Part shown: piece by piece, positions 1,164-63,831 of the stretch
How positions within the stretch are numbered: the first letter of the stretch is position 1
How the letters are laid out: each line of letters opens with the position of its first letter
Virus record (IMG/VR): IMGVR_UViG_3300028490_000394
Length of the DNA: 64,000 bases
Strand: one strand, 5' to 3'
From: an uncultured virus (IMG/VR IMGVR_UViG_3300028490_000394)
Taxonomy: Duplodnaviria; Heunggongvirae; Uroviricota; Caudoviricetes
Notes under the pieces: model-generated
What the model was told of the DNA's origin: nothing
Seen by the model: the letters and a program-made list of their open reading frames with translations, nothing else
Database searches by the model: none
Position numbers and translations under genes: made by a program

Positions 1164-1793
1164 TTATTGCTTTCTTTTTCCTTTTTTTACAAAACCATAA
1201 GAATCGACCTTCTCAGCGAGAGAATCGAAGTCTATTATATCAAAATTAGTTCTAGTAAAGAATGTCTTAAAAAAATTTCGGTTTTTATTAGAAGTAAAGG
1301 ATAGATATGGTCCATTATCCTTCATTTTCTTTTGAATGTCTTTAATCACCATATCTATTTCTTTAAATAGTTTATATGACTTAAATATTTGTTTATGTAG
1401 TGGACGTGGATTTGTCCAATTCATTTCTCTCACAAAATCTTGAAAAGAGTTTTCTGATAATTCTTTTTCATTTTTTTGTATAAATTTTAGTAAACTATTT
1501 CTATTTAGAGAAGAACCTTTATTTCTTAATAAACACCCTTCTATTTTTTCTACAGCTTCTTCTTTTATATCTCCCTGGTCTAGCATTAATATATAAACAA
1601 ATGATTCTTTTAATTCTATTAAAAAGTCCTCTTTTACATATATATCTAGTTGTCCACCATGACTTATTCCATTTAGTTTTGGAAGATCTATGAGGTATAA
1701 ATTTTCTTTTGAAGAATTATGTAACTCTTGTACTATTTGATTTATACCTGTATAGCTTTCTTCTAGTATTTTTATTGATATTTTATATATCAT
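1164..1793 (-). CDS. cas6f: divergent Cas6f (Csy4) crRNA endoribonuclease
   Basis: Last gene of the cas operon; N-terminal ELH His, PYLSFTS (compare Csy4 PFVTLRS) and C-terminal DSYGF loop. Confidence 0.7.
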   Translation of the reverse strand: MIYKISIKILEESYTGINQIVQELHNSSKENLYLIDLPKLNGISHGGQLDIYVKEDFLIELKESFVYILMLDQGDIKEEAVEKIEGCLLRNKGSSLNRNSLLKFIQKNEKELSENSFQDFVREMNWTNPRPLHKQIFKSYKLFKEIDMVIKDIQKKMKDNGPYLSFTSNKNRNFFKTFFTRTNFDIIDFDSLAEKVDSYGFVKKGKRKQ

Positions 1794-2881
1794 TATTTAC
1801 CTTTGTTTTGGAAGAGACCGCCTCTTACTAAATTCATATATACATAAAAAAGTTCTTCAGAATTTAATACTGTGCTTATCTCTTTATTTGAGTTTACAGC
1901 TTCTAATAGTTTATCTATCATAGGAAAAACTTTTTGTTCGTCACTTCTAAAGTCCTCAAAAAACTTTGTTGAGGTACCAGTCGGTTCTATTGGAATTACT
2001 AATGGATTTGCGGTATTAACGTTTAAATCGTAGAACGTGTCCACTGTTCTAATCGCATTTGATATTTTTTCTGGAGATAATCCAAAGACTGGTTCTTTAG
2101 TTGATTTTTTAAAAGAAACACATTTATACATTTCTTTTTCTTTATCGTCTTTTTTTGTTGAAAATAATTCTGAAGGATAAATATATGCTCCTCCACCTAT
2201 CATGAAAGTTGTTGTTATATTTAAAGTTAAAGACTCTATAGAATCTTGTTCTTTAACTATATATTTACTAATCAACCCTGATAATCTTTCAAATGATTCA
2301 TTTTCAGAATATAAGTCATTTGCTGCTCCTGTTTCTAAAGATAGTGCAAAAGGTGCTTTTTTATATATACGCGCATTTTCATTAAATTCTAGAGATCCTT
2401 TTTCTATTTCTCCTATTTCATTTACAACTTCAAAATCTATTTTTGTTGTTATTTTTTTAGCAAGATCTCTATTTCTAAACCCTACTGAACCATTAACTAT
2501 ATTATATGCAATTCCCATACCTACTGCACTTGTAACTATTTCATTTTCTTTAAGTTCTGTTATGATTTTGTTGAAGGCTTCTAAACTTGATACTTTTGAT
2601 ACTTTTATTTTATCTGGGATATTATTTACTCCCAGAATTGTTAATTTGTAATTTAACACAAGATCGTCTTGATCATTATTTAAGAAAACTTTTTCTCTAA
2701 TAGGTGTTGGATTTGGACCTTCTGTATCTTTCTTATGTTCTATAGCACCTTTGACCCCTACATTTATTAACTTTTCAGAGGAGATCCCTTTATTTATAAA
2801 TGCACCTTCACTATACTCAATTGCTCTTTTTATACTTAATACTGTTGGTAAATTTTGTAAACCTGTTTTTTCTTTTGCCAT
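1793..2881 (-). CDS. cas7f: Cas7f (Csy3) Cascade backbone
   Basis: LPTVLSIKR, SPEKISNAIRTVDTFY, IPIEPTG and NLVRGGLF match Csy3 motifs; start moved to MAKE after AAGGA. Confidence 0.9.
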   Translation of the reverse strand: MAKEKTGLQNLPTVLSIKRAIEYSEGAFINKGISSEKLINVGVKGAIEHKKDTEGPNPTPIREKVFLNNDQDDLVLNYKLTILGVNNIPDKIKVSKVSSLEAFNKIITELKENEIVTSAVGMGIAYNIVNGSVGFRNRDLAKKITTKIDFEVVNEIGEIEKGSLEFNENARIYKKAPFALSLETGAANDLYSENESFERLSGLISKYIVKEQDSIESLTLNITTTFMIGGGAYIYPSELFSTKKDDKEKEMYKCVSFKKSTKEPVFGLSPEKISNAIRTVDTFYDLNVNTANPLVIPIEPTGTSTKFFEDFRSDEQKVFPMIDKLLEAVNSNKEISTVLNSEELFYVYMNLVRGGLFQNKGK

Positions 2882-2885
2882 TTTT

Positions 2886-3641
2886 TTATCCTTTATGATT
2901 TGTTTCAATAATATATTGATCTTTTATTTTTTTTGTTTTCCATGAGTATTTATCATAGACCTCTTCTGTTAGCTTTTCTTTTAAGAAAGTGAATTTTGTA
3001 AATTTTATAATTGGTTCTACATAGTAATGTTCTTTTTTGTAAATAGAATCTTCTGTATTACCTTTTCCTAGAATTAACTCTCCTACACGAGATAAGGCTT
3101 TTATTCCTTTTGAACCTTTTTTTATTAAACTAGCTTCATAGATCATGTGATCTATTGAATCGAAGTTTGAATCCATTGAATATTGTGTATAACCTATTGG
3201 TCTATATATATTTTTAATGGTCGACTCTATCTGCATTTTATAGTTTATAATATTACCACCTGCAATTCTTAACTTTTTTAATATGTTAAATGCATTTAGT
3301 AAATCTTCAATCTCCAAAAATGTATGGTTCAGTTCAAATATTAGACTTACCTCAATATAACCTCTTGGCATATCTACTAAGCCGTCTGAACGTACTGGAT
3401 CCCTTGATTTCAATGTATGAGTTTTAGATTGTCCCATAAATCCATTTCTTTTATAGGTAATCATAAATCCATTACTTATTGAAAATTCTCCGTCTATTTC
3501 TTTAGAATTATTAATCTTTAATTCAATATTTTTTAATAGTGAGTGATAGACAAATGGACTTGGTAAACCATATAAAAACTCTGTTTGATAGAAATTTACA
3601 TTTACAGCATTTATATCTATTTTTATATAAGTTTTATTCAC
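2886..3641 (-). CDS. cas5f: Cas5f (Csy2)
   Basis: YGLPSP and LRIAGGNI motifs typical of Csy2; operon position. Confidence 0.85.
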   Translation of the reverse strand: MNKTYIKIDINAVNVNFYQTEFLYGLPSPFVYHSLLKNIELKINNSKEIDGEFSISNGFMITYKRNGFMGQSKTHTLKSRDPVRSDGLVDMPRGYIEVSLIFELNHTFLEIEDLLNAFNILKKLRIAGGNIINYKMQIESTIKNIYRPIGYTQYSMDSNFDSIDHMIYEASLIKKGSKGIKALSRVGELILGKGNTEDSIYKKEHYYVEPIIKFTKFTFLKEKLTEEVYDKYSWKTKKIKDQYIIETNHKG

Positions 3642-5292
3642 AACATTCCTCCCTTATTAGTTTATTTAAATCTATATAAAAAAATCTATCCTTTAAGTAA
3701 GATTCTTTAAATTGTATTTCTTCTTTTTCACTATTCACACATTTATTCCAGAATTGATTGGTATATAGAACTTCATTTGTAGAAAATAAATCTTCTAATT
3801 CCTCTTTTTCATATAGTTCAAAAATAATATTTATCTTATTTCTTAATATATTTTTAACTAATTGCTCTAAAGTTTCTGAAACTAAACGCATGTTTTTTTT
3901 GCTATATTGATTTAGTCCACCTATTGATTCATATCTTTTTTGTGCACTACTTAGATTAAAGTGTATACTTTTTAACTCTCTTGTATTCTCCATGCTTGTT
4001 AAAATAATGGATATCAATTCTTTTTCTTTTTGTTCTTTTGTTTCTGAATTATCAAATTTATTTATAAAAATATCAATTTCTTTCCCGTGAGTTAGAGAAG
4101 GTATAAATCCTTTTAATACCTTTCCTTGAGTTGATAGCATGTCTATGTTTTGTTGGTTATTTTTTAATAAATTTGAACCTTCTAAGGTATTTATCCAAAT
4201 ATTTGAAATATTATTCAAATCTTCTTCTGTAAGATACTTTGATAACATATCAAATGCTTTTTTTGAAAATATATATGTTACTTCTTCAACTGCTATTTTT
4301 TTATCTTTGATTAGTTCTAAATCTGTGAATTTATTTTTTTTTGAAAAGTTTTCTATATTTTCTTCAAGATAGTTTTTATTTTTCTTTAATTCATATAAAT
4401 GATAATTTAGTGCACTTAATAAATTCTTATTATAAAAATATATTGCAAGATTAGGAATTGAGGAAAATGTAACAAAACTATTTTCTGAGTCTATAAAGTA
4501 TGTATATTGTTTAAAATCAAAACTATTGTAATTTGGAATTGTGAAATCTTTAGTTTCTTCTTTTGATCTTTCTTTACTAAACTTTTCTAATTCATTTCTT
4601 CTATTTAAAATATCCTCTTTTTTACTTGTATTATAGAAACCTGCCCACATTCTATTTTTTAATATTGAAAAACTCTCTGATAATTTATGTCCAGATAAAA
4701 AGAAATCTTCTGATAGAGAATAACTACCTCTTACCATACTATCTGGCATGCTTTTTAATGGTAGTTTTGAATTACATAATTCTTTACAATCATGGTTATT
4801 ACTTTTTCCAAAAACATGTCTAAAATTTAACAAAGAATTCTCTAGTAAAAGGAAGGACTCACTGTTATGATTGCTATTTTTTGTTGTGAAATTTAATAAA
4901 TCTGGATAATAATTATGTATCACATTTAAGTATTTTTTAAAAAGTAAATCATAAGTTATTTTAAATTTAGTATTTGTTTTAGTTATTTCTACTTTAGCTA
5001 CATTGTCTGGAATGTCTATAAATTCTATATCTTCAATAATTTGATTTAAAATACTTCCTTCATTTGAAGGTATTAACTGACTTTTATTAATAGTTCCTTT
5101 ATATTTATATTGATTATATTCTTCTGAACTTGTTATTGACAGATCTAATATAAATAATTCTATTGAAAAATTTTTGTCTATGTAGACTCTTTTTTTTAAT
5201 AGTTTATATTTGGGATCTTGTAAAAATTTTTCTGCAGCTATAAAGAATACTTCTTCTAAATAATTTATAAAGGGTATCTTTTTTTTACTCAT
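3634..5292 (-). CDS. cas8f: Cas8f (Csy1)-like large subunit, divergent and elongated
   Basis: RHVFGKSNNHD, KQYTYF and NQQNIDML..IPSL align with Csy1 THxxKxxHPD, KQLYF and KPQNISQL..LPSL; operon position. Confidence 0.7.
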   Translation of the reverse strand: MSKKKIPFINYLEEVFFIAAEKFLQDPKYKLLKKRVYIDKNFSIELFILDLSITSSEEYNQYKYKGTINKSQLIPSNEGSILNQIIEDIEFIDIPDNVAKVEITKTNTKFKITYDLLFKKYLNVIHNYYPDLLNFTTKNSNHNSESFLLLENSLLNFRHVFGKSNNHDCKELCNSKLPLKSMPDSMVRGSYSLSEDFFLSGHKLSESFSILKNRMWAGFYNTSKKEDILNRRNELEKFSKERSKEETKDFTIPNYNSFDFKQYTYFIDSENSFVTFSSIPNLAIYFYNKNLLSALNYHLYELKKNKNYLEENIENFSKKNKFTDLELIKDKKIAVEEVTYIFSKKAFDMLSKYLTEEDLNNISNIWINTLEGSNLLKNNQQNIDMLSTQGKVLKGFIPSLTHGKEIDIFINKFDNSETKEQKEKELISIILTSMENTRELKSIHFNLSSAQKRYESIGGLNQYSKKNMRLVSETLEQLVKNILRNKINIIFELYEKEELEDLFSTNEVLYTNQFWNKCVNSEKEEIQFKESYLKDRFFYIDLNKLIREECCE

Positions 5293-7937
5293 TTTTTCTC
5301 CTTTGTTAATTTAAATCCTATATTTGTAAATTCAATTTTTAACATGTATTCTTTTTCCTTATTTATATTTATAGAAAATGTATTAAATCTTTTATATCCA
5401 TTTTCTTTTTTTAGAAATTTATTTTTCCAGGTATTAAAACCTTTAAAAATTTCTCTATTTACATTTTCTATATTCATTCCAATTATTGGACTTTCATTAT
5501 AAACCGTTTCATATTGAAAGGCATGTTCTTTATTTTTTCCTGATTTTATTTTAGGTTCTATATGCATAATATCATTATTATTATCTATATAGAATTGTTG
5601 AGTCCCTTCATTTTGTCTAAAGTCGGTATAAAAACCAAAATTAGATTCTCTTGTATTGTATACTAAAAATCTATTAAAGAAGCTTAACCCTTCAAAATCT
5701 TTTATATATGTGTCTGAAAAATTTAACTTCTTCTCTATTGCTAGGTTTTCATGTACTGCTAATAGATTTTTATTTTCGTCTTGCTCAAATATATGTTTGT
5801 TTGTTGATAAGAATTCTTCTTCTTTTACTAAATCTGATAAATCATGTAAACCTGTGTGACCAACGAATTCATTTCCTTCTTCAAAACCTGGTTGGGAATA
5901 AATTTTAGTTATCCTACCTTGTTGTAAATTAAAGTTTTTATTTAATATTACTATATTTGTATTAGTATTATTTTCTCTATATCTATGTCTATAAACTCTA
6001 CCACTACTTTGTATAATGCTTCTTGTTGACGAAGGTTCTGTTATATGCCAATCAAAATCATGATCTCTACCAACTTCTTCCACTGGGCTTGCTATTACAA
6101 TTACTATGTTATTTTTTTGAATATTATCTTTCATAAATTCTTTTTCATATAATTTATCTTTTTTTCTTTCCAGTAATATATCTAATTGTTTTTCTATATA
6201 AGAACGTTCAAGTAAAGTAAATTGCGCATGATATACTATGATTTTAATATTATGATTATGTAATTCTGGTTCAATGATTTTGATTAATGAAAATATCTCT
6301 TTTACATGTGCAATTCTTATTAACCCTGCTGAAAATTTATTTCCTTTGCTATCTACTTCATTATTGTTTTCATGTAGTTCAAGTGCGCATTGTAATATAT
6401 CTGTTTTTTTAAGATCTTTTATCTTTGTATTATTTTTTGACACCGTGTTCTTAATCACAATACTAGTAGCTTCTTTCCATGAAATTTCAAAATCCATTAT
6501 ATTTAGTCTTTTATTTGTAAAATCTGAAATATATAAGCAATTGATTTCTTTATATGTATTCTTTGCCTTTATACCATTCATAAATGCCTCATAATAGGCT
6601 TTTGCTAGTGCTGGGTATGGTGTCGCAGTACTTAGTATAAGATTGACTCCATAATAGCCTGCTAGAAAGATTAAATTTAAAACTGATTTTTGGTCTTCTA
6701 AACCTAGTTCGTCTACTTCGTCAATTATAAGGTCTGAAGTTATCAACCTTATAGTTGGATTAATATGGTTAGACCTTCTATAATCTGTGGCTTTAATCAT
6801 GTAATCAATTGTTGAAATTAAAATAGGTGTATCTAAAAAGTTCGCGACATTTCTTGAAAAATAGTCCTTATCTTTAAAATTTGACTGCCTGTCTATTGAT
6901 AATTCTGGCTCGTCTACTTTTTCTTCTTTATTATATGTTTGATATATATCTGTAATTGATTTAGAACCAATTAAAACATTTATATCTTCCTCTTTAAATA
7001 TCTTTAAATTTGTGTATGCAGTACCTGTTTGTAAAGTTAAAGTTCTTAAACCTTGTATTACTGTTAATCTATTCTTTTTGTTTATTAAACTACTATATTT
7101 TAATCCAAACCTTGTTTTCCCTGAACCTGTAGAGGACGATAGAAATGTTAATGTGGGGATATCTTTATTTATATTATCTTTTGCAAACTGTATTGACTTT
7201 TCTTGCCATTTAAATTTATCTATTTCAGTGGTTTCATGTATTATAGAGTCTAAATTTGTTTCTGACCATTTACTAAATGGATTTTTATTTTGAAAAAATA
7301 TTTCTTCTGCAAAGTTTATTTTAGAATTTACTGCTGCAATATGTTCTGAATATTTTTGATAATTATTATTTAAATCTTTTGCACTTAAATCTTTTTTATA
7401 ATTTTTATGATTATTATTGAATTTCACAGTTGATCCTATATGATCTGCTAGGATTAAAGAATTTCGGAGATCTATAATCTCATTAATTGGGATTGAAATG
7501 TTTGCTATTTTTTTTAAATCATTTTTTGCCTTATCGAAAATTTCTTTTGATATGATTCTAAAATCTTTTATTTTATCGTCCGTAAGGTTATGTAAATAAA
7601 CAAAACTAGTGTTTACAGGTATCGAACCTATATTTGATATTTCTGGAAGTCTATGGTGTGTTCCCATTATATATAGTAAGTTATATATATTTGGAGTATT
7701 TTTTCTTATTTCTTCAGAAATATATGCTGTCTTTTTTACTCTATTCTTTATAAATAATAAATAAGATTCCTCATTATATTCTTTATTTTTTATGATATAT
7801 TCAAAAATTAAAATTGTTAAATAGGAGTGATTTACTATACTTTTATATTTCTTATCTTTAAGTATTTTCTGAAAATGAAATGTATTTTTACCTAAATCAT
7901 GATACTTAGCTATAAAACTTAATATTTCTTTTCTCAA
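5289..7937 (-). CDS. cas3: type I-F Cas3 HD nuclease-helicase without the N-terminal Cas2 domain
   Basis: HDLGK, THH, LADH..SEH, STGSGKT, GLRTLTLQTG, DEVDE, EVGRDHDFDW and QSSGRVYRHR; likely start is TTG at 7937 after AAGGA, since the ORF-track start at 7994 lies inside a CRISPR spacer. Confidence 0.93.
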   Translation of the reverse strand: MRKEILSFIAKYHDLGKNTFHFQKILKDKKYKSIVNHSYLTILIFEYIIKNKEYNEESYLLFIKNRVKKTAYISEEIRKNTPNIYNLLYIMGTHHRLPEISNIGSIPVNTSFVYLHNLTDDKIKDFRIISKEIFDKAKNDLKKIANISIPINEIIDLRNSLILADHIGSTVKFNNNHKNYKKDLSAKDLNNNYQKYSEHIAAVNSKINFAEEIFFQNKNPFSKWSETNLDSIIHETTEIDKFKWQEKSIQFAKDNINKDIPTLTFLSSSTGSGKTRFGLKYSSLINKKNRLTVIQGLRTLTLQTGTAYTNLKIFKEEDINVLIGSKSITDIYQTYNKEEKVDEPELSIDRQSNFKDKDYFSRNVANFLDTPILISTIDYMIKATDYRRSNHINPTIRLITSDLIIDEVDELGLEDQKSVLNLIFLAGYYGVNLILSTATPYPALAKAYYEAFMNGIKAKNTYKEINCLYISDFTNKRLNIMDFEISWKEATSIVIKNTVSKNNTKIKDLKKTDILQCALELHENNNEVDSKGNKFSAGLIRIAHVKEIFSLIKIIEPELHNHNIKIIVYHAQFTLLERSYIEKQLDILLERKKDKLYEKEFMKDNIQKNNIVIVIASPVEEVGRDHDFDWHITEPSSTRSIIQSSGRVYRHRYRENNTNTNIVILNKNFNLQQGRITKIYSQPGFEEGNEFVGHTGLHDLSDLVKEEEFLSTNKHIFEQDENKNLLAVHENLAIEKKLNFSDTYIKDFEGLSFFNRFLVYNTRESNFGFYTDFRQNEGTQQFYIDNNNDIMHIEPKIKSGKNKEHAFQYETVYNESPIIGMNIENVNREIFKGFNTWKNKFLKKENGYKRFNTFSININKEKEYMLKIEFTNIGFKLTKEKK

Positions 7938-7955
7938 TAAAAATTCCTTTTTGTG

Positions 7956-8041
7956 TTTTTTTACTACATTGTCGTAGTATACCATGTGAAACATATCAAC
8001 TTAGCCATAGCTTAATTCTAAACTACATTGTCGTAGTGTTA
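7956..8041 (-). CRISPR. repeat-spacer-repeat mini-array in the cas3 leader
   Basis: Variant repeats at 7956-7982 (TTTTTTTACTACATTGTCGTAGTATAC) and 8015-8041 (ATTCTAAACTACATTGTCGTAGTGTTA) flank a spacer of exactly 32 bp (7983-8014). Confidence 0.9.
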
Positions 8042-10991: not shown

Positions 10992-11444
10992 ATGGAAGTA
11001 ATATATACTAGAGATTATAAAGGTAAAGAGGCAGAATCAATTGATACTGTCGCAGACGGGTTTGCACAAAACTTTCTTATCCCAAGAGGAATTGCAATTG
11101 TTGCTACAGAGGCTAATATCGAAGCCCTAAAGGTTAAGAAAGATAATGAAACCAAAGAATATAGAGCTGCTATGATTGAACGGACTACAAATAAAAAGAT
11201 TCTTGAAGAAAAGACTATTTCTATTGTAAGAAAAGGATCTACGTCTTCTGGGCAAATGATCGGTGCTGTTACTCATGCTAATATTGCCGAAGCTATTGAA
11301 AATGTAGTTGGTATTCCAGCTAATAAAAAGAAGCTACATGCTGAAACGATCAAAAAGTTTGGTCTTTATAATATTGATTATGACCTTGGTGAAGGTATTG
11401 TTGCTGTAGTTAAGCTTCATGTTGCACAAGAGGGAGTTTCTTAA
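10992..11444 (+). CDS. rplI: 50S ribosomal protein bL9
   Basis: VADGFAQNFLIPRGIA and C-terminal GAVT..IAEAI..IKKFGLY; full length. Confidence 0.9.
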   Translation: MEVIYTRDYKGKEAESIDTVADGFAQNFLIPRGIAIVATEANIEALKVKKDNETKEYRAAMIERTTNKKILEEKTISIVRKGSTSSGQMIGAVTHANIAEAIENVVGIPANKKKLHAETIKKFGLYNIDYDLGEGIVAVVKLHVAQEGVS

Positions 11445-14721: not shown

Positions 14722-14794
14722 GGTTTAGTAAGTCTCAGCGGTAGAGCGTGTTCCTGTGAGGGAGCGGTCACTGGTTCGAATCCAGTCTAATCCA
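14722..14794 (+). pseudogene. degenerate tRNA-like element, anticodon GTG (His-like)
   Basis: Perfect T-arm ACTGG-TTCGAAT-CCAGT, acceptor GGTTTAG/CTAATCC, D-like CTCAGCGGTAGAG, imperfect anticodon stem around CTGTGAG. Confidence 0.6.
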
Positions 14795-14854
14795 CTACTC
14801 GTTAGGTACGTACACGTTAACCTCTGTACCATGATCGGCGAGTTATTATTTATA

Positions 14855-56091: not shown

Positions 56092-56538
56092 TTAGTTTCC
56101 TGGTACTGCTGGTGCTGCTGCATTTATAACTAGAGAACCGTCTAGACAGCTATCAAATTCTACTTTTTCACTTGTATATGTTGCATTAGCTAGTGCAACT
56201 GTATAACCAGCTGAACCGTCAGTACATGTTTTAGTCGCTACTGTAATTGTATTCCCTTTAGAGAATGCTGTTCTTACATTTCCAGTTGTACATAGACCAT
56301 TGTTTTTTGTGTCTGAACCTGTTTCTCCACAAGAAATTGCTGTATATGCTTGTGCATTTGCAAATTCAGTTTGTTGTGCAATGATTGCACCTCTTGCGTC
56401 ACTCTTCATTGAGTTTGCTACCGCTACTTTTGTTGAGTCATTAAGATTTGCGATTGCAAAGCCTGCTAAGATTGAGATAATTGCCATTACGAATAGTAAT
56501 TCTACTAGGGTAAACCCTTTTTTCATTGTTGATTTCAT
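56092..56538 (-). CDS. type IV pilin / pseudopilin-like protein
   Basis: KKG|FTLVELL class III signal peptide; four Cys. Confidence 0.85.
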   Translation of the reverse strand: MKSTMKKGFTLVELLFVMAIISILAGFAIANLNDSTKVAVANSMKSDARGAIIAQQTEFANAQAYTAISCGETGSDTKNNGLCTTGNVRTAFSKGNTITVATKTCTDGSAGYTVALANATYTSEKVEFDSCLDGSLVINAAAPAVPGN

Positions 56539-57647: not shown

Positions 57648-58628
57648 TTAAGACATACGCTCAATTAACTCATACAAACTTCCGTGCATTTGTTTATCTT
57701 TACATACTCTCATTACTTTTTGAAGTCTATCTACTGAGATAAGACCTGTGCCTTGGACACCACCACTATGGTTAGCGTCTCTTTTATAATCTGACATTGA
57801 TTCTACTTTCATGGTTCCTTCTTTTGAAATAAAGAAATCGTGATCGTTTTGTAAGAATCTTGTTAGAGCTGTTTTTACTTTTGAAAAAGCACTCATGTTC
57901 TCCATATCACTTTTTAAAGTCGTACTTCTGTATCTACCATTCTTTTCTTCAATCAATGCTTGAATATCTTCTCTAAGCTTTGCATATGCATTTTGATCAA
58001 ATTCACTGTTTGCTGTTAAGATATATTCATATTCATTTCCCATTACACTTAAAGATAGCTTAAACGCTTCCTCTCCTGTATATTCATTCTCTAGTACATA
58101 CGTATATTGCATGATTGGTTCTTGTAGATCCTGAATTTGTTGATATTTATAGAATAGACGTGGTAGTACTTTTGCTACTGCAGCTTTAGCTTCTACAGTT
58201 AGAGTTTCTAAATCTGCATGATCTATACCTCTTACGAAAAATCTAAATTCTCCTGCATTTGTCATAGTAAAGTTGTGTGCTTGCTGATATCCATAATATA
58301 GCGTTTTGTCTACTTCTGAGACATTTCCTAGATTACGAAGTTCCGTTCTTATTTCTTCAGTTAACCAAAGAAGTAGACTCGAATAGTCTTCTTTTACAAT
58401 GTGAACAATTGGTGCAGCGTATACTAGTCCTTTTAGTAGGGACATGTATTCACTCGCGTATTGATACGTTAGCATTGTTTGAAACTTTTGTAGTTTCCCG
58501 GGAAACATTTCTTTAAAATTGATCTCAACAGTAATTATTCCTGTTGAACTCGTTTTTACAGAAACCTTATCTGCAAACTCGTCCGCTTTTATTAAGTACC
58601 CTGGTACATTTAGTATTGGTAATTCCAT
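57648..58628 (-). CDS. hypothetical protein (tandem paralog 3 of 3)
   Basis: MELPIL..PGYL, MFPGKL, PIVH, LQEPI and GVQGTG; start reassigned. Confidence 0.8.
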   Translation of the reverse strand: MELPILNVPGYLIKADEFADKVSVKTSSTGIITVEINFKEMFPGKLQKFQTMLTYQYASEYMSLLKGLVYAAPIVHIVKEDYSSLLLWLTEEIRTELRNLGNVSEVDKTLYYGYQQAHNFTMTNAGEFRFFVRGIDHADLETLTVEAKAAVAKVLPRLFYKYQQIQDLQEPIMQYTYVLENEYTGEEAFKLSLSVMGNEYEYILTANSEFDQNAYAKLREDIQALIEEKNGRYRSTTLKSDMENMSAFSKVKTALTRFLQNDHDFFISKEGTMKVESMSDYKRDANHSGGVQGTGLISVDRLQKVMRVCKDKQMHGSLYELIERMS

Positions 58629-58712
58629 AGGAACCCCTTGTAAAAATTTACTATACTTGAAAAGTAATAGCATGCCATGTTATAAGATTGTTTGGGCCCC
58701 GAGGGGCCATGG
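58629..58712 (-). repeat. repeated intergenic cassette (hairpin plus upstream region); copies at 59729-59815, partial at 60816-60877 and 57626-57646
   Basis: TTGAAAAGTAATAGCATGCCATGTTATAAGATTGTTTGGGCCCCGA(G/A)GGGCCATGG is near-identical in two copies. Confidence 0.85.
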
Positions 58713-58726
58713 TACTATACGTATAC

Positions 58727-59728
58727 TTACGATAGTCTTAAAACTAACTCTTTATATTCTTCGAGCATATCTTTTTCTTTACATTTTTCTTCAACTTCTT
58801 TAAGTCTCTCTTCTGTAATCATGCCTGTGCCTGGGACACCATGTAATGGTAATTCTTGACCATGTACCACTGTATTCATAATACTTACATGAGTATCTCC
58901 TTCTCTTGAAAAAAAGAATTTATGATCTACTTTTAAGAACTGACTAATTGTACTTTTAAAGATATCAATACCTGTATAATAAATATCTCTATTCATATCA
59001 CTTCTGTTTTTTGCTTTCTCATAGTTTTCATTTCTTTTTTCTGTAAGATTTTTTACTTCTTCGTAGAATTTTGAAATTGCTTCGCTATCAAATTGACCAT
59101 TTGCAATATTTTCAATTGTCTCGTATTTATCTGCAAATACAGAAAGTTGAAAATTAAAGCCTGTTTGGCCATTATACTCATTTTCAATTTCACATGCATA
59201 ATACATAATTGGTTCTTGTAAACATTGAATTGCTTCATACTTCATTAGTAAGTGCACTAGTACTCTAGATACAGCTGCTTTAATATCTTCAGTATGTTGT
59301 TCTATTTTACTGAGATCCACTTCATTTAGTATGATTTCCATTTCACCACCATTTTGAGTTGTGTAATCATGTGTCATTGTTGATAATACATATGTATTTA
59401 CATGTCTTCTAATGGGACCTATGTTTAATTTTTCGATCTCTTTGTCTAACTCTGTTTTTAACCATTCAAAGATAGAATAGTTTTTTTCTTTGATCGCATG
59501 TACTATTGGTACTGAGTGTACAGATCTTAATAATAAGCCTCTACATTCTACTCCAAACAAATAAGTTAACATTGTTTGAAATTTCTTCAGTTTTCCGGGA
59601 AACATTTTTCCAAAGTGCAATTTGATTATTAGTTGATTTTCTGCGCCGGTTGGTCCAATCATTGCTTTATCAGCAAAATCGTCTGTTTTATCCAGATATC
59701 CTGGTATATGTAGTATTGGTAATTCCAT
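58727..59728 (-). CDS. hypothetical protein (tandem paralog 2 of 3)
   Basis: Same motifs; start reassigned to MELPIL. Confidence 0.8.
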   Translation of the reverse strand: MELPILHIPGYLDKTDDFADKAMIGPTGAENQLIIKLHFGKMFPGKLKKFQTMLTYLFGVECRGLLLRSVHSVPIVHAIKEKNYSIFEWLKTELDKEIEKLNIGPIRRHVNTYVLSTMTHDYTTQNGGEMEIILNEVDLSKIEQHTEDIKAAVSRVLVHLLMKYEAIQCLQEPIMYYACEIENEYNGQTGFNFQLSVFADKYETIENIANGQFDSEAISKFYEEVKNLTEKRNENYEKAKNRSDMNRDIYYTGIDIFKSTISQFLKVDHKFFFSREGDTHVSIMNTVVHGQELPLHGVPGTGMITEERLKEVEEKCKEKDMLEEYKELVLRLS

Positions 59729-59819
59729 AGAATAACCCTTTGTATAAAATTTACTATCCTTGAAAAGTAATAGCATGCCATGTTATAAGATTGTTTGGGC
59801 CCCGAAGGGCCATGGAGAG

Positions 59820-60815
59820 TTAAACCGTTCTAGACGATAAACGCATAATAAGATTTTGATATTCAGGTAGCATGTTTTTCTTTTTACATTTTTCTGAAAC
59901 TTCTTTTAATCTTTCTATAGATATAAAACCTGTACCTGGTACACTGTGTATACCTTCTGACATTAAGCTGTAATTATTTACAACTGTGTTCATAATATTT
60001 ACAGACAGCTCTCCTTCTTTTGAATAAAAGAATTCGTGATCTGCTTTTAAAAACTTACTGATCAATACTTTAAACATGTTAATACCTGAGTGGTAAAAAC
60101 CTGTACTTAAGTCTGACTTTGTCTTTGCATTCAAAAAATCAACGTTTCTATTATCTGCAAGTTTAGTTACTTTTTGATAATGTTCTGAAAAGGCTGGAAT
60201 GTCAAATCTTTTTTCATTTACTGAAATAATGGTCTCATACTTATCTGCCATAATTGACAATTGAAATTTGTAACCTACTTCTTTTGTGTACTCGTCTTCT
60301 AACTCATATGAATAAGTTATGATTGGACTAGTTAGGTTTTGAATATATTCATATCTTAATAATAGTGCAACTAAAACATGTGTTACAGCTCCTTTTATTT
60401 GAAGTGTAATGTTATCTATATTCTCTAGGTCGACTTTGGAAAGAATAACTTTCAGTGTTCCACCATTTGTCGTATCATAAACAGTTTTTAATGGTTCAAC
60501 TTTTCCAATGTTTAAACCAGTAAGACCACTTTCTACCTCTTCTTGTAACCAGTCAAATATTGTCCACTTCGTTTCCTTAACATTGTGAACAATAGGGACT
60601 GAACATACGAATGAATGATCTAGATTTCTTTTTTCTAAAGCATACAAGTATGATAAAATAGTGTGAAATTGTTTTAATTTACCTGGGAACATATCTCCAA
60701 AGTGTAGTTTGACAACTACGAATGGTGAGAGTGTGTTAGTTTCTATCAAGATTTTATCTGCATAGTCTGCAACTTTGTCTAAATATCCTGGTATGTGTAG
60801 TATTGGTAATTCCAT
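59820..60815 (-). CDS. hypothetical protein (tandem paralog 1 of 3)
   Basis: Same motifs. Confidence 0.8.
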   Translation of the reverse strand: MELPILHIPGYLDKVADYADKILIETNTLSPFVVVKLHFGDMFPGKLKQFHTILSYLYALEKRNLDHSFVCSVPIVHNVKETKWTIFDWLQEEVESGLTGLNIGKVEPLKTVYDTTNGGTLKVILSKVDLENIDNITLQIKGAVTHVLVALLLRYEYIQNLTSPIITYSYELEDEYTKEVGYKFQLSIMADKYETIISVNEKRFDIPAFSEHYQKVTKLADNRNVDFLNAKTKSDLSTGFYHSGINMFKVLISKFLKADHEFFYSKEGELSVNIMNTVVNNYSLMSEGIHSVPGTGFISIERLKEVSEKCKKKNMLPEYQNLIMRLSSRTV

Positions 60816-62297: not shown

Positions 62298-62420
62298 TTA
62301 AGCAGTTAGTTCGAATTGATCTTTGCCATAAATTGCTGACATTCTTTTATATGCTTCTTTTTTTGATTCTGCTGTTAAGATTGCTCTACCACCAGAAAAT
62401 AATTTAAATATAAAATTCAT
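62298..62420 (-). CDS. 40-aa hypothetical protein (absent from ORF track)
   Basis: MNFIFKLFSGG..; AAGGAG RBS and TTAAG..TGGTATAAT promoter. Confidence 0.5.
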   Translation of the reverse strand: MNFIFKLFSGGRAILTAESKKEAYKRMSAIYGKDQFELTA

Positions 62421-62531: not shown

Positions 62532-62610
62532 TGGGGGCAGATACTGGATTTGAACCAGTGGAATTTCTTGGGAATGAACCAAGCGAGCGACCTGACTGCT
62601 CTAATCTGCT
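62532..62610 (-). tRNA. tRNA-Met(CAT), initiator-like, atypical
   Basis: Cloverleaf, A1.C72 mismatch, loop TT-CAT-TC, encoded CCA. Confidence 0.8.
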
Positions 62611-62619
62611 ACATTTTTT

Positions 62620-62696
62620 TGGGTGCGGAGGTTGGACTCGAACCAACGACCTCTGGGCCATGAACCCAACAAGCTAACCAACTGCTCTACTCCGCG
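62620..62696 (-). tRNA. tRNA-fMet(CAT)
   Basis: C1.A72 mismatch, GGG/CCC anticodon stem, loop TT-CAT-GG, CCA. Confidence 0.9.
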
Positions 62697-62706
62697 TTAT
62701 ATTTTT

Positions 62707-62784
62707 TGGTTGCAGGTGTTGGATTTGAACCAACGACCTCTGGGTTATGAACCCAACGAGCTGACCGGACTGCTCTAACCTGCG
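62707..62784 (-). tRNA. tRNA-fMet(CAT)
   Basis: C1.A72 mismatch, GGG/CCC stem, loop TT-CAT-AA, CCA. Confidence 0.92.
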
Positions 62785-62801
62785 TTAAATTTACTCTTTT
62801 A

Positions 62802-62878
62802 TGGTTGCGGATATTGGATTCGAACCAATGACCTCTAGGGTATGAGCCTAGCAAGCTACCAAACTGCTCTAATCCGCG
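62802..62878 (-). tRNA. tRNA-fMet(CAT)
   Basis: C1.A72 mismatch, stem CTAGG/CCTAG, loop CT-CAT-AC, CCA. Confidence 0.9.
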
Positions 62879-62891
62879 TTATATGTTTTTG

Positions 62892-62968
62892 TGGTCGGAG
62901 AGAAGGGATTCGAACCCTCGTGTTCTTCTTTGTAAGAGAAGTGAATAACCATTCTTCGTCACTCGCCG
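62892..62968 (-). tRNA. tRNA-Val(TAC), atypical
   Basis: CTTCT-CTTACAA-AGAAG arm, GAGGG-TTCGAAT-CCCTT, CCA; weak D stem. Confidence 0.8.
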
Positions 62969-63041
62969 ATCGTTTGTTCATTACTACTGTAATCAACTTT
63001 AAACAGCTCACTATTTTATGAACTGTTTAAAACTGACATAT

Positions 63042-63119
63042 TGGCAGGCGCCCAGGGACTCGAACCCTGATCCTTGGGATTTGGAATCCCCTGCTCTATC
63101 CAATTGGAGCTAGACACCT
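63042..63119 (-). tRNA. tRNA-Trp(CCA)
   Basis: AGGTGTC/GGCGCCT acceptor, G73, loop TT-CCA-AA, CCA. Confidence 0.92.
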
Positions 63120-63132
63120 AAAAATTTGACAT

Positions 63133-63176
63133 AAAAAAAGGGGGAACCGGGTACTTAAGACCCGATCCCCCCTTTT
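63133..63176 (-). terminator. strong intrinsic terminator just upstream of the tRNA cluster
   Basis: GGGGGGATCGGGT-CTTAAGT-ACCCGGTTCCCCC followed by T7. Confidence 0.7.
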
Positions 63177-63192
63177 GTACATATATTACCTT

Positions 63193-63276
63193 TTAGATAA
63201 TTTGTACTCCAGAAAAAGAGCCATAAGAATTAGTTACCACAAATGTCTGCCAAGAATTTACTTTTTTCAAAACCAT
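63193..63276 (-). CDS. 27-aa leader-like peptide MVLKKVNSWQTFVVTNSYGSFSGVQII
   Basis: AAGGAG RBS; TTAAG..TATACT promoter upstream. Confidence 0.5.
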   Translation of the reverse strand: MVLKKVNSWQTFVVTNSYGSFSGVQII

Positions 63277-63387
63277 GTCTCCTTTATTTTCTGTATTTTA
63301 GAAAGTATATACCAACTAACCTTAAAGTAAGCTTAAATATACTTCCAATGTCTATTTTTTTGTTAAAATATATGAATATATCATATT

Positions 63388-63831
63388 TTATGAGGTTATA
63401 AACGAAACCTCTTCAATTCTACCACCTGTACATTTTTTGTATTCGACACCTCTTTCAACGTTCTTGTATTTCGGATTACTAACACCTATACGATATCCTT
63501 TTCCTCCACCCTGAAGTGGTGTACAGTTAAAAGTATTTATTGAAAGATTGTTTCCTTTTGATATTGCTGTTTTAAATCCTGTTTTTTCACATATCCCATT
63601 TGTATCGTCGACACCTTCTTTACAGTTTATCTTTACATAATTCCCTGTCTTAGATATAAATTGTTGTTGTGCTAGAATTGCATTTCTTGCGTCACTTTTC
63701 ATTGAAGTTAAAATTGCTACTTCTGTTGAATCATTTAGATTTGCAATTGCAAATCCTGCTAATATTGAGATTATTGCCATTACGAATAATAGCTCTACTA
63801 GGGTAAAACCCTTTTTGATTGTTTGTTTCAT
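63388..63831 (-). CDS. type IV pilin / pseudopilin-like protein (paralog of 56092-56538)
   Basis: KKG|FTLVELL; N-terminal half nearly identical to the other pilin. Confidence 0.85.
   Translation of the reverse strand: MKQTIKKGFTLVELLFVMAIISILAGFAIANLNDSTEVAILTSMKSDARNAILAQQQFISKTGNYVKINCKEGVDDTNGICEKTGFKTAISKGNNLSINTFNCTPLQGGGKGYRIGVSNPKYKNVERGVEYKKCTGGRIEEVSFITS

Follow-up and report, generated by a model that had tools for sequence, protein, structure and literature searches.

Four tandem initiator-type tRNA genes with divergent anticodon loops on a phage-like element: a candidate counter-defence set at tRNA-fMet

All translation passes through one choke point, the initiator tRNA, and the cellular genes sampled show no variation in its anticodon loop; what, then, are four initiator-type genes for that stand in tandem on one viral element, each with a loop of its own? 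The genes lie in the window, i.e., the whole stretch of DNA analysed, whose 64 kb open a virus record of 151,558 bp (GC 31.5%) classed as provirus and 42% complete, with its proteins on a 431,381-bp contig. A Pfam scan of 121 ORFs (47, and 74 picked among the longer ones with few of the pilin paralogues) gave no virion family (capsid, terminase, portal); the families found were type I-F Cas, pilin-like, NADAR, Macro, Apyc1-like hydrolase, HisRS, L9 and PTH2-like. The element is likely a huge phage; the alternative is a megaplasmid.

Four initiator-type tRNA(CAU) genes were called by ARAGORN and by Rfam (RF00005), all on the minus strand and numbered in order of transcription: M1, 62802–62878 (61.1 bits); M2, 62707–62784 (61.7 bits); M3, 62620–62696 (53.4 bits); M4, 62532–62610 (41.1 bits). 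The Rfam E-values are all ≤4e-7; M4 escaped the whole-window gathering scan, but its score passes the 29-bit cut-off. The reversed control pattern gave 0 matches across the record, so the initiator-pattern matches are not due to chance. The spacers of M1–M4 are A-rich (9–17 nt), and the genes close a minus-strand row of six: Trp(CCA), Val(UAC), M1, M2, M3, M4. The row is headed by tRNA-Trp(CCA) (63042–63119, minus; 48.3 bits, ARAGORN and Rfam; G27·A43 mismatch). The tRNA-Val(UAC) (62892–62968, minus; 45.6 bits, ARAGORN and Rfam alignment) is remodelled (C4·U69 mismatch, two additional bases 5' of the D stem), sits 13 nt upstream of M1 and is likely co-transcribed with it. A 14-pair hairpin with a -10-like TAAAAT hexamer separates the Trp and Val genes (62998–63031, minus), and a 17-pair, intrinsic-terminator-like hairpin stands 16 nt upstream of tRNA-Trp (63136–63176, minus). 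The promoter scan gave 9 sites against 9.4 expected, none of them convincing for the tRNA cluster. By eye, two possible small ORFs of ~27 and ~40 codons with AAGGAG-type sites flank the cluster on either side (window ~63197–63280 and ~62298–62420, minus); the limits of both are approximate, and the latter lies downstream of a TTGATT-17-TATAAT promoter-like site. A fifth initiator-type gene, M5 (loop UU-CAU-AA, G31·U39), was found at 89568–89645 of the same record, 27 kb from the cluster; the elongator-type CAU gene of the record (88986–89062) is distinct from M1–M5.

Identity elements were scored position by position with Sprinzl numbering. All four genes have a 1:72 mismatch (C·A in M1, M2 and M3; A·C in M4), the G10-A11-G12-C13 D stem with A11-U24, the pairs G2-C71 and C3-G70 (formylase elements together with A11-U24), G30-C40 and G31-C39, a 7-nt anticodon loop with U33 and CAU, and an encoded CCA. 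Elongator tRNA-Met and tRNA-Ile2(CAU) have a paired 1-72 and a GCUC-type D stem, as do the elongator-type genes on metagenome contigs; both identities were ruled out by the mismatch and the GAGC stem in 4/4. Histidine identity, considered on account of C73 and of the HisRS encoded by the record, was rejected because neither M3 nor M4 bears G at -1.

The canonical C32/A37/A38 loop is present in 0/4; the loops are CU-CAU-AC (M1), UU-CAU-AA (M2), UU-CAU-GG (M3) and UU-CAU-UC (M4). Pair 29-41 is A-U in M1, G-C in M2 and M3 and U-A in M4, and so the full set of three G-C pairs in the anticodon stem (29-31:39-41) stands in M2 and M3. The discriminator is A73 in M1 and M2 and C73 in M3 and M4, and the acceptor run G4G5G6 is broken in all five copies, M1–M5. 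M1–M4 are initiator-type variants and not typical members of the class, the canonical loop failing in four of them and A73 in two. An earlier note on this DNA had read the same from the window, viz. four tandem initiator-type genes, the 1:72 mismatch and GAGC stem in each, three G-C stem pairs in two copies and two in the others, and C73 for A73 in two; each point was reproduced, the loops to the letter. To these the analysis adds the C21 and long variable loop of M4, the broken G4G5G6 and the fifth gene. At the conserved sites M1 differs from the cellular consensus in U25 and C38 only. M2, with A4-U69, is the nearest of the set to a host-type gene (88% identity to the best Campylobacterota matches), and it retains the A38/C39 junction. 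The most remodelled is M4 (A1·C72, C73, U29-A41, UU-CAU-UC, C21, 7-nt variable loop); the A21 that it has lost is present in 110/110 cellular sequences. Minimum-energy folding did not discriminate, giving a cloverleaf for M2 and M4 and none for M1, M3 or the host control alike. For a link of C73 with tail cleavage by Cas12a3 no support was found; the literature, in its accessible parts, gives N at the discriminator.

The pairing pattern bears on whether such genes are maintained. In M1–M4 not one of the 20 stem pairs below 1:72 is broken in any copy (G·U counted as paired). With M5 as reference 19 pairs differ, 19/19 still pair, and 11 do so through two-sided changes; with an equal number of substitutions placed at random, the probability that all pairs are kept is 0.0045, 0.0003, 0.0099 and 0.0006 for the four copies. 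Conserved sites were taken as the 42 positions ≥95% conserved among 110 unique cellular initiators; in M1–M4 changes fall on 8/12 of the sites 32/37/38 and on 9/156 of the other 39 conserved sites, a clustering that p = 7e-7 makes look too strong, because the search itself fixed some of the positions and U32 may go back to a single ancestral change. By their pairing the four genes are judged to be intact and diverged, not decaying. The copies are alike at 45–51/63 positions. The T-stem is common to 4/5 copies and occurs elsewhere in 7/188 viral and 4/97 cellular sequences, which suggests an old duplication inside the lineage; some cellular genes match M2 and M3 as closely as the sister copies do, so that separate captures are possible, and nearest-neighbour distances between sequences of 75 nt are ambiguous on monophyly.

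The loops were compared with those of other initiators by running one pattern, with positions 32, 37 and 38 free, on viral and cellular collections; 120 loci were listed for each, from 1 or 2 of 64 parts, as convenience samples, and the statistics treat phages as independent regardless of relatedness. Among the matches listed, a non-canonical loop was found in 32/120 viral and 0/130 cellular initiators (unique sequences: 32/118 vs 0/118; Fisher 4e-11), all 130 cellular matches having CTCATAA. This contrast (27% vs 0%) is of broader interest than the present locus. Drift in GC as the cause was rejected, the flanks of variant and canonical viral loci being alike (median GC 0.51 and 0.52, p = 0.65). 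Also among the matches listed, A:C at 1:72 occurs in 9/120 viral and 0/130 cellular initiators, C73 in 2/130 cellular ones, and pair 29-41 is A-U in 28/130 and U-A in 4/130 cellular ones. In the same listing, G29-C41 is absent from 80/118 unique viral and 27/118 unique cellular sequences. G4G5G6 is absent from 62/117 unique viral and 13/110 unique cellular initiators listed (97/110 have the run); its loss is thus a common viral feature and not peculiar to this locus. U32 accompanies non-A38 among the viral matches listed (18/23 vs 7/95). Elongator-type host tRNA(CAU) genes with U32/C38 exist in clusters on metagenome contigs, a sign that such loops are tolerated.

A scan for non-A38 initiators gave an estimated ~1200 viral stretches; the 120 loci listed hold 102 unique genes, with acceptor stems mostly intact, and fall into 64 flank-similarity groups, an overcount in that 40 loci have short flanks. 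Among these 120 variant loci the M4 loop, UU-CAU-UC, was found at least 27 times (4 flank groups) and the M1 loop, CU-CAU-AC, at least 8 times (7 flank groups). The M3 loop, UU-CAU-GG, is on 3 contigs (GC 0.47–0.67) in the whole viral collection, and the M2 loop, UU-CAU-AA, has at least 5 occurrences among the 120 viral matches listed. All four loops thus turn up again in unrelated viral contigs, which is read as convergence, and each represents a recurring viral state and not a private lesion.

The array itself had no full counterpart in the collections searched. All 120 viral loci listed have a single initiator copy within 300 bases. On 21 viral contigs, which look like a single group of gut phages (GC ~56%), two initiators stand in tandem with a variant as the last; both copies have UU-CAU-UC and A29-U41, and 20/21 contigs match the pattern twice. 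This group of twin UU-CAU-UC initiators (L505–L525; also L040, L041 and others) is a tractable second case of U37 initiators. A triple-initiator pattern run on viral contigs gave 33 stretches and no triple initiator array, and a triple-CAU pattern with a variant first copy run on metagenome contigs gave 27 stretches, in none of which three or more variant initiators stand together; both patterns are exact motifs, which divergent arrays may escape. Host-type clusters (Met/Ile2/fMet trios or one elongator-type gene repeated) account for 26/27 of the metagenome stretches. One metagenome contig of GC 35% (L456, 4969–5217) has three tRNA(CAU) genes in tandem that differ from one another: two are initiator-like and one, with CU-CAU-AC, is elongator-like. 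This trio is unrelated to the present set. When the cluster was compared by blastn with 50,697 phage records, none covered 80% of it (best 45%), and the neighbouring proteins gave no relative of the locus among viral contigs or plasmids.

The host is likely a member of the Campylobacterota: among 120 matches listed for cytochrome c, the named homologues (4/4) are from Arcobacter or Campylobacterota, which suggests this host clade. The comparison with host tRNA-fMet, put forward in the earlier note as a check, was run on 31 Campylobacterota initiators (the best 30 from a search of 201 genomes, and one more). All 31 have the canonical loop, three G-C pairs and A73, and G4G5G6 is present in 16/17 unique sequences. 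Against this set position 38 is changed in M1, M3 and M4, position 32 in M2–M4 and pair 29-41 in M1 and M4, and G4G5G6 is broken in all. VapC-like genes, as putative attackers of tRNA-fMet, were found in 17/201 Campylobacterota genomes, 1 of them above the family cut-off. The family profile (shown as PRK13725) is one that we take to be the fMet-specific VapC.

The rest of the record was surveyed for context. Type I-F cas genes (Csy2, Csy3, Cas3; Pfam) occupy window 1164–7994; the translation cargo comprises HisRS (record 96931–98148), a PTH2-like protein (record 91767–92063), a short protein matching the EF-Tu GTP domain (record 122767–123264) and L9 (window 10992–11444); NADAR, Macro and Apyc1-like genes lie elsewhere on the record. 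About a dozen type IV pilin-like paralogues share an almost identical N-methylation leader and differ in their C-terminal parts (window 56092–56538 and 63388–63831; record 64372, 64883, 67802, 76889, 83311, 83857, 85987, 119164, 137557 and 139952); they possibly serve receptor masking or pilus hijacking. Three tandem paralogous ORFs of 330–350 aa at window 57648–60815 have no Pfam match, and for one of them (59820–60815) there were 0 PHROG matches and no viral-contig relative. Two units of the record (~80545–80690 and ~80835–80965) are each built of two tRNA elbows whose anticodon arms are stunted; in these units the CCA-ending 3' strand of body two pairs with the 5' acceptor strand of body one. 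Further tRNA-like genes have loops of ambiguous or abnormal length (window 14722–14795; record 81394–81464, 82318–82390, 89982–90054, 90262–90335, 140780–140849, 140940–141016 and 141776–141845); anticodon calls in these odd genes include CUA (twice) and UUA (once), though TAG and TAA serve as normal stops. A recoded genetic code was rejected, as the long ORFs end in TAA/TAG/TGA in 124/36/12 cases.

Several enzymes are known to attack tRNA-fMet; the published sources cited here and below were accessible in part, and statements drawn from them refer to those parts. Enteric VapC cleaves tRNA-fMet at the 38/39 junction (PMC10264068), as the earlier note had stated and the supplement of that paper bears out. 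The P2 OLD nuclease depletes fMet, Val(UAC), Gly(UCC), Thr and Pro tRNAs, with cuts after nt 27–29 (10.64898/2026.07.10.737580); its targets fMet, Val(UAC) and Gly(UCC) all have tRNA genes on this record, and the Val(UAC) gene beside M1 fits this target list but could be there by chance. AtaT requires G4G5G6:C67C68C69 and is slowed by A1-C72 (PMC7595197). The earlier note had counted AtaT among the fMet-targeting toxins; what it reads, however, is the acceptor stem rather than the loop, and it is not fMet-specific, Gly, Trp, Tyr and Phe tRNAs being modified as well (PMC7595197). Free tRNA-fMet is described as having a special loop fold (A37·G29-C41 triple, C32·A38 pair) that is gone on the formylase and on the ribosome. 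Of the anticodon-stem G-C pairs the middle one is reported as essential and the first one as variable in nature; E. coli stays viable when the first pair of its initiator is A-U or U-A, U-A causing some cold defect (PMC5389676). A73, C32 and A37 are listed as determinants for E. coli MetRS (PMC9976931, Table 1); minor as these are, M3 and M4 each have none of the three, so they are probably charged less well, and M4 bears the further core changes C21 and the long variable loop.

Taken with these data, the genes keep CAU, the 1:72 mismatch, G2-C71, C3-G70, A11-U24 and G30-C40 and vary at 29-41, 32, 37, 38, 4-6 and 73. Since the variable sites are those on which the free fold or the attacking enzymes depend, while what formylation and P-site entry require is intact, we infer that the copies would initiate and yet be poor substrates, each in a different way. 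With moderate confidence M1–M4 are regarded as a diversified counter-defence set that would keep initiation going under host attack on tRNA-fMet; as the loops are viral and are found in 0 sampled cellular copies, the set likely sustains phage initiation when defences cut or block the start tRNA. An ancestral initiator gene would have been amplified in tandem, with a higher dose, and the copies would have diverged afterwards. The changes at 29-41, 32, 37 and 38 are predicted to abolish the free-tRNA loop fold, of which the ribosome makes no use, and to change the regions cut by VapC (38/39) and OLD (27–29); the broken G4G5G6 and A1·C72 would weaken AtaT-type acetylation. Separate copies may survive separate enzymes encountered across hosts, M1 and M2 likely being efficient initiators and M3 and M4 weaker but more resistant back-ups. 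In M2, where the A38/C39 junction and the three G-C pairs are intact, U32 and the acceptor changes alone could be protective. Of the evasion panel proposed in the earlier note, the part that stands is that the loop changes are virus-specific and recurrent, sit on fully paired bodies and fall at known attack sites; that it is directed against several defences is a conjecture from the diversity of the copies.

Other readings have to be set against the counter-defence set. Amplification may have come for the sake of dosage, i.e., tandem copies provide more of a single initiator that is resistant or independent of the host, and later drift from one tolerated state to another without taking on separate tasks. 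Amplification of a tRNA gene does defeat Septu in phage T6 (PMC13096335), the 21 contigs of the gut phage group have two tandem copies with one same loop, and the rare T-stem in 4/5 copies points to duplication within the lineage; but the present copies differ from one another at 12–18/63 positions, compared with 0–2 nt for cellular tandem copies (8 loci), and change concentrates on loop sites that are invariant in cells, so that we regard this reading as unlikely, if a serious one. Decay of one or two functional genes into pseudogenes after duplication is scarcely probable: it would account for M4, the lowest-scoring and most deviant copy, and for the want of a conserved relative in the viral contigs, phage records and plasmids searched, but no stem pair is broken in any copy, changes are compensatory, CCA is retained and the loops recur in other viruses. 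The many odd tRNA-like genes make a lineage-wide relaxation of constraint possible, which speaks against a counter-defence set.

The same mimics, namely the anticodon-less two-bodied units and the tRNAs with loops of abnormal length, would suit a mixed set in which M1 and M2 initiate, whereas M3 and M4 are poorly charged and serve as decoys, binding or saturating the nucleases or sensors directed at fMet, as would the loss of A73, C32 and A37 in M3 and M4. This seems a rather remote prospect, given that CAU and every formylation and P-site element are retained, that the same loops are often found in single-copy viral initiators, and that in the OLD case phage tRNAs replace rather than inhibit (10.64898/2026.07.10.737580). 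Tuning of initiation in place of evasion (preference for start codons or mRNAs, or fit of host range to MetRS, formylase and IF3) is held to be very unlikely: 29-41 and 37 are reported to influence P-site selection, and the record has other translation cargo (HisRS, L9, PTH2-like), but by rough calls the longer ORFs have ordinary starts (ATG in 153/172, a 4–5-nt Shine-Dalgarno match in 155/172), and the one canonical loop shared by 31/31 Campylobacterota initiators leaves no host diversity to fit.

If the counter-defence set is real, it would show that phages hedge across several defences at tRNA-fMet rather than carry one resistant copy. As a natural series they separate features read by toxins (32, 37, 38, 29-41, 4-6, 73) from those needed by MetRS, formylase and the ribosome, and M1–M5 could yield toxin-resistant initiator tRNAs for research. 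A bolder form of the idea is put forward tentatively and seems to us rather doubtful, viz. that each of the five initiators is tuned past another class of fMet-attacker (loop nuclease, stem nuclease, acceptor-stem acetyltransferase, 3'-end attacker), and that the viral U32/non-A38 alleles (about a quarter of viral initiators, no sampled cell) mark widespread unnamed anti-phage systems that recognise the free tRNA-fMet fold, in which case the four genes would offer an allelic series with which to find them.

Evasion by phage tRNAs is already known; a multi-allele initiator panel was not found in the literature searched (few subscription journals), nor was a census of viral initiator loops. Bacterial arrays of the metZWV type are similar in having tandem initiators with short spacers, but cellular tandem initiators are identical or ≤2 nt apart with loops that are all canonical, and M1–M4 are neither. 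The huge phage 1-SewaA (PMC10747093) also has more than one initiator gene, with two fMet copies as compared with five here. In the SegB-driven amplification of tRNA-Tyr against Septu (PMC13096335) extra tandem tRNA copies likewise act as counter-defence; those are recent repeats of a genome segment, whereas the copies here are compact and diverged, with unrelated spacers. The T5 tRNA-Lys that answers PARIS (PMC11464382) and the phage tRNA-Thr that answers OLD (10.64898/2026.07.10.737580) are variants that replace the cleaved host tRNA (for OLD, replacement and not inhibition was demonstrated), with determinants in the anticodon stem-loop, as proposed here; M1–M4 would work like them. The PARIS and OLD cases are experimentally proven single-copy elongator tRNAs, whereas M1–M4 are candidates. 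Closest are the phage tRNAs of van den Berg 2023 (PMC10264068), likewise changed at or near the nuclease cut site with evasion predicted, including single tRNA-fMet genes of coliphages and mycobacteriophages; the fMet examples in the accessible part of that paper retain CTCATAA, whereas the present element has four tandem genes and a fifth, which differ in their combinations of loop, stem and acceptor.
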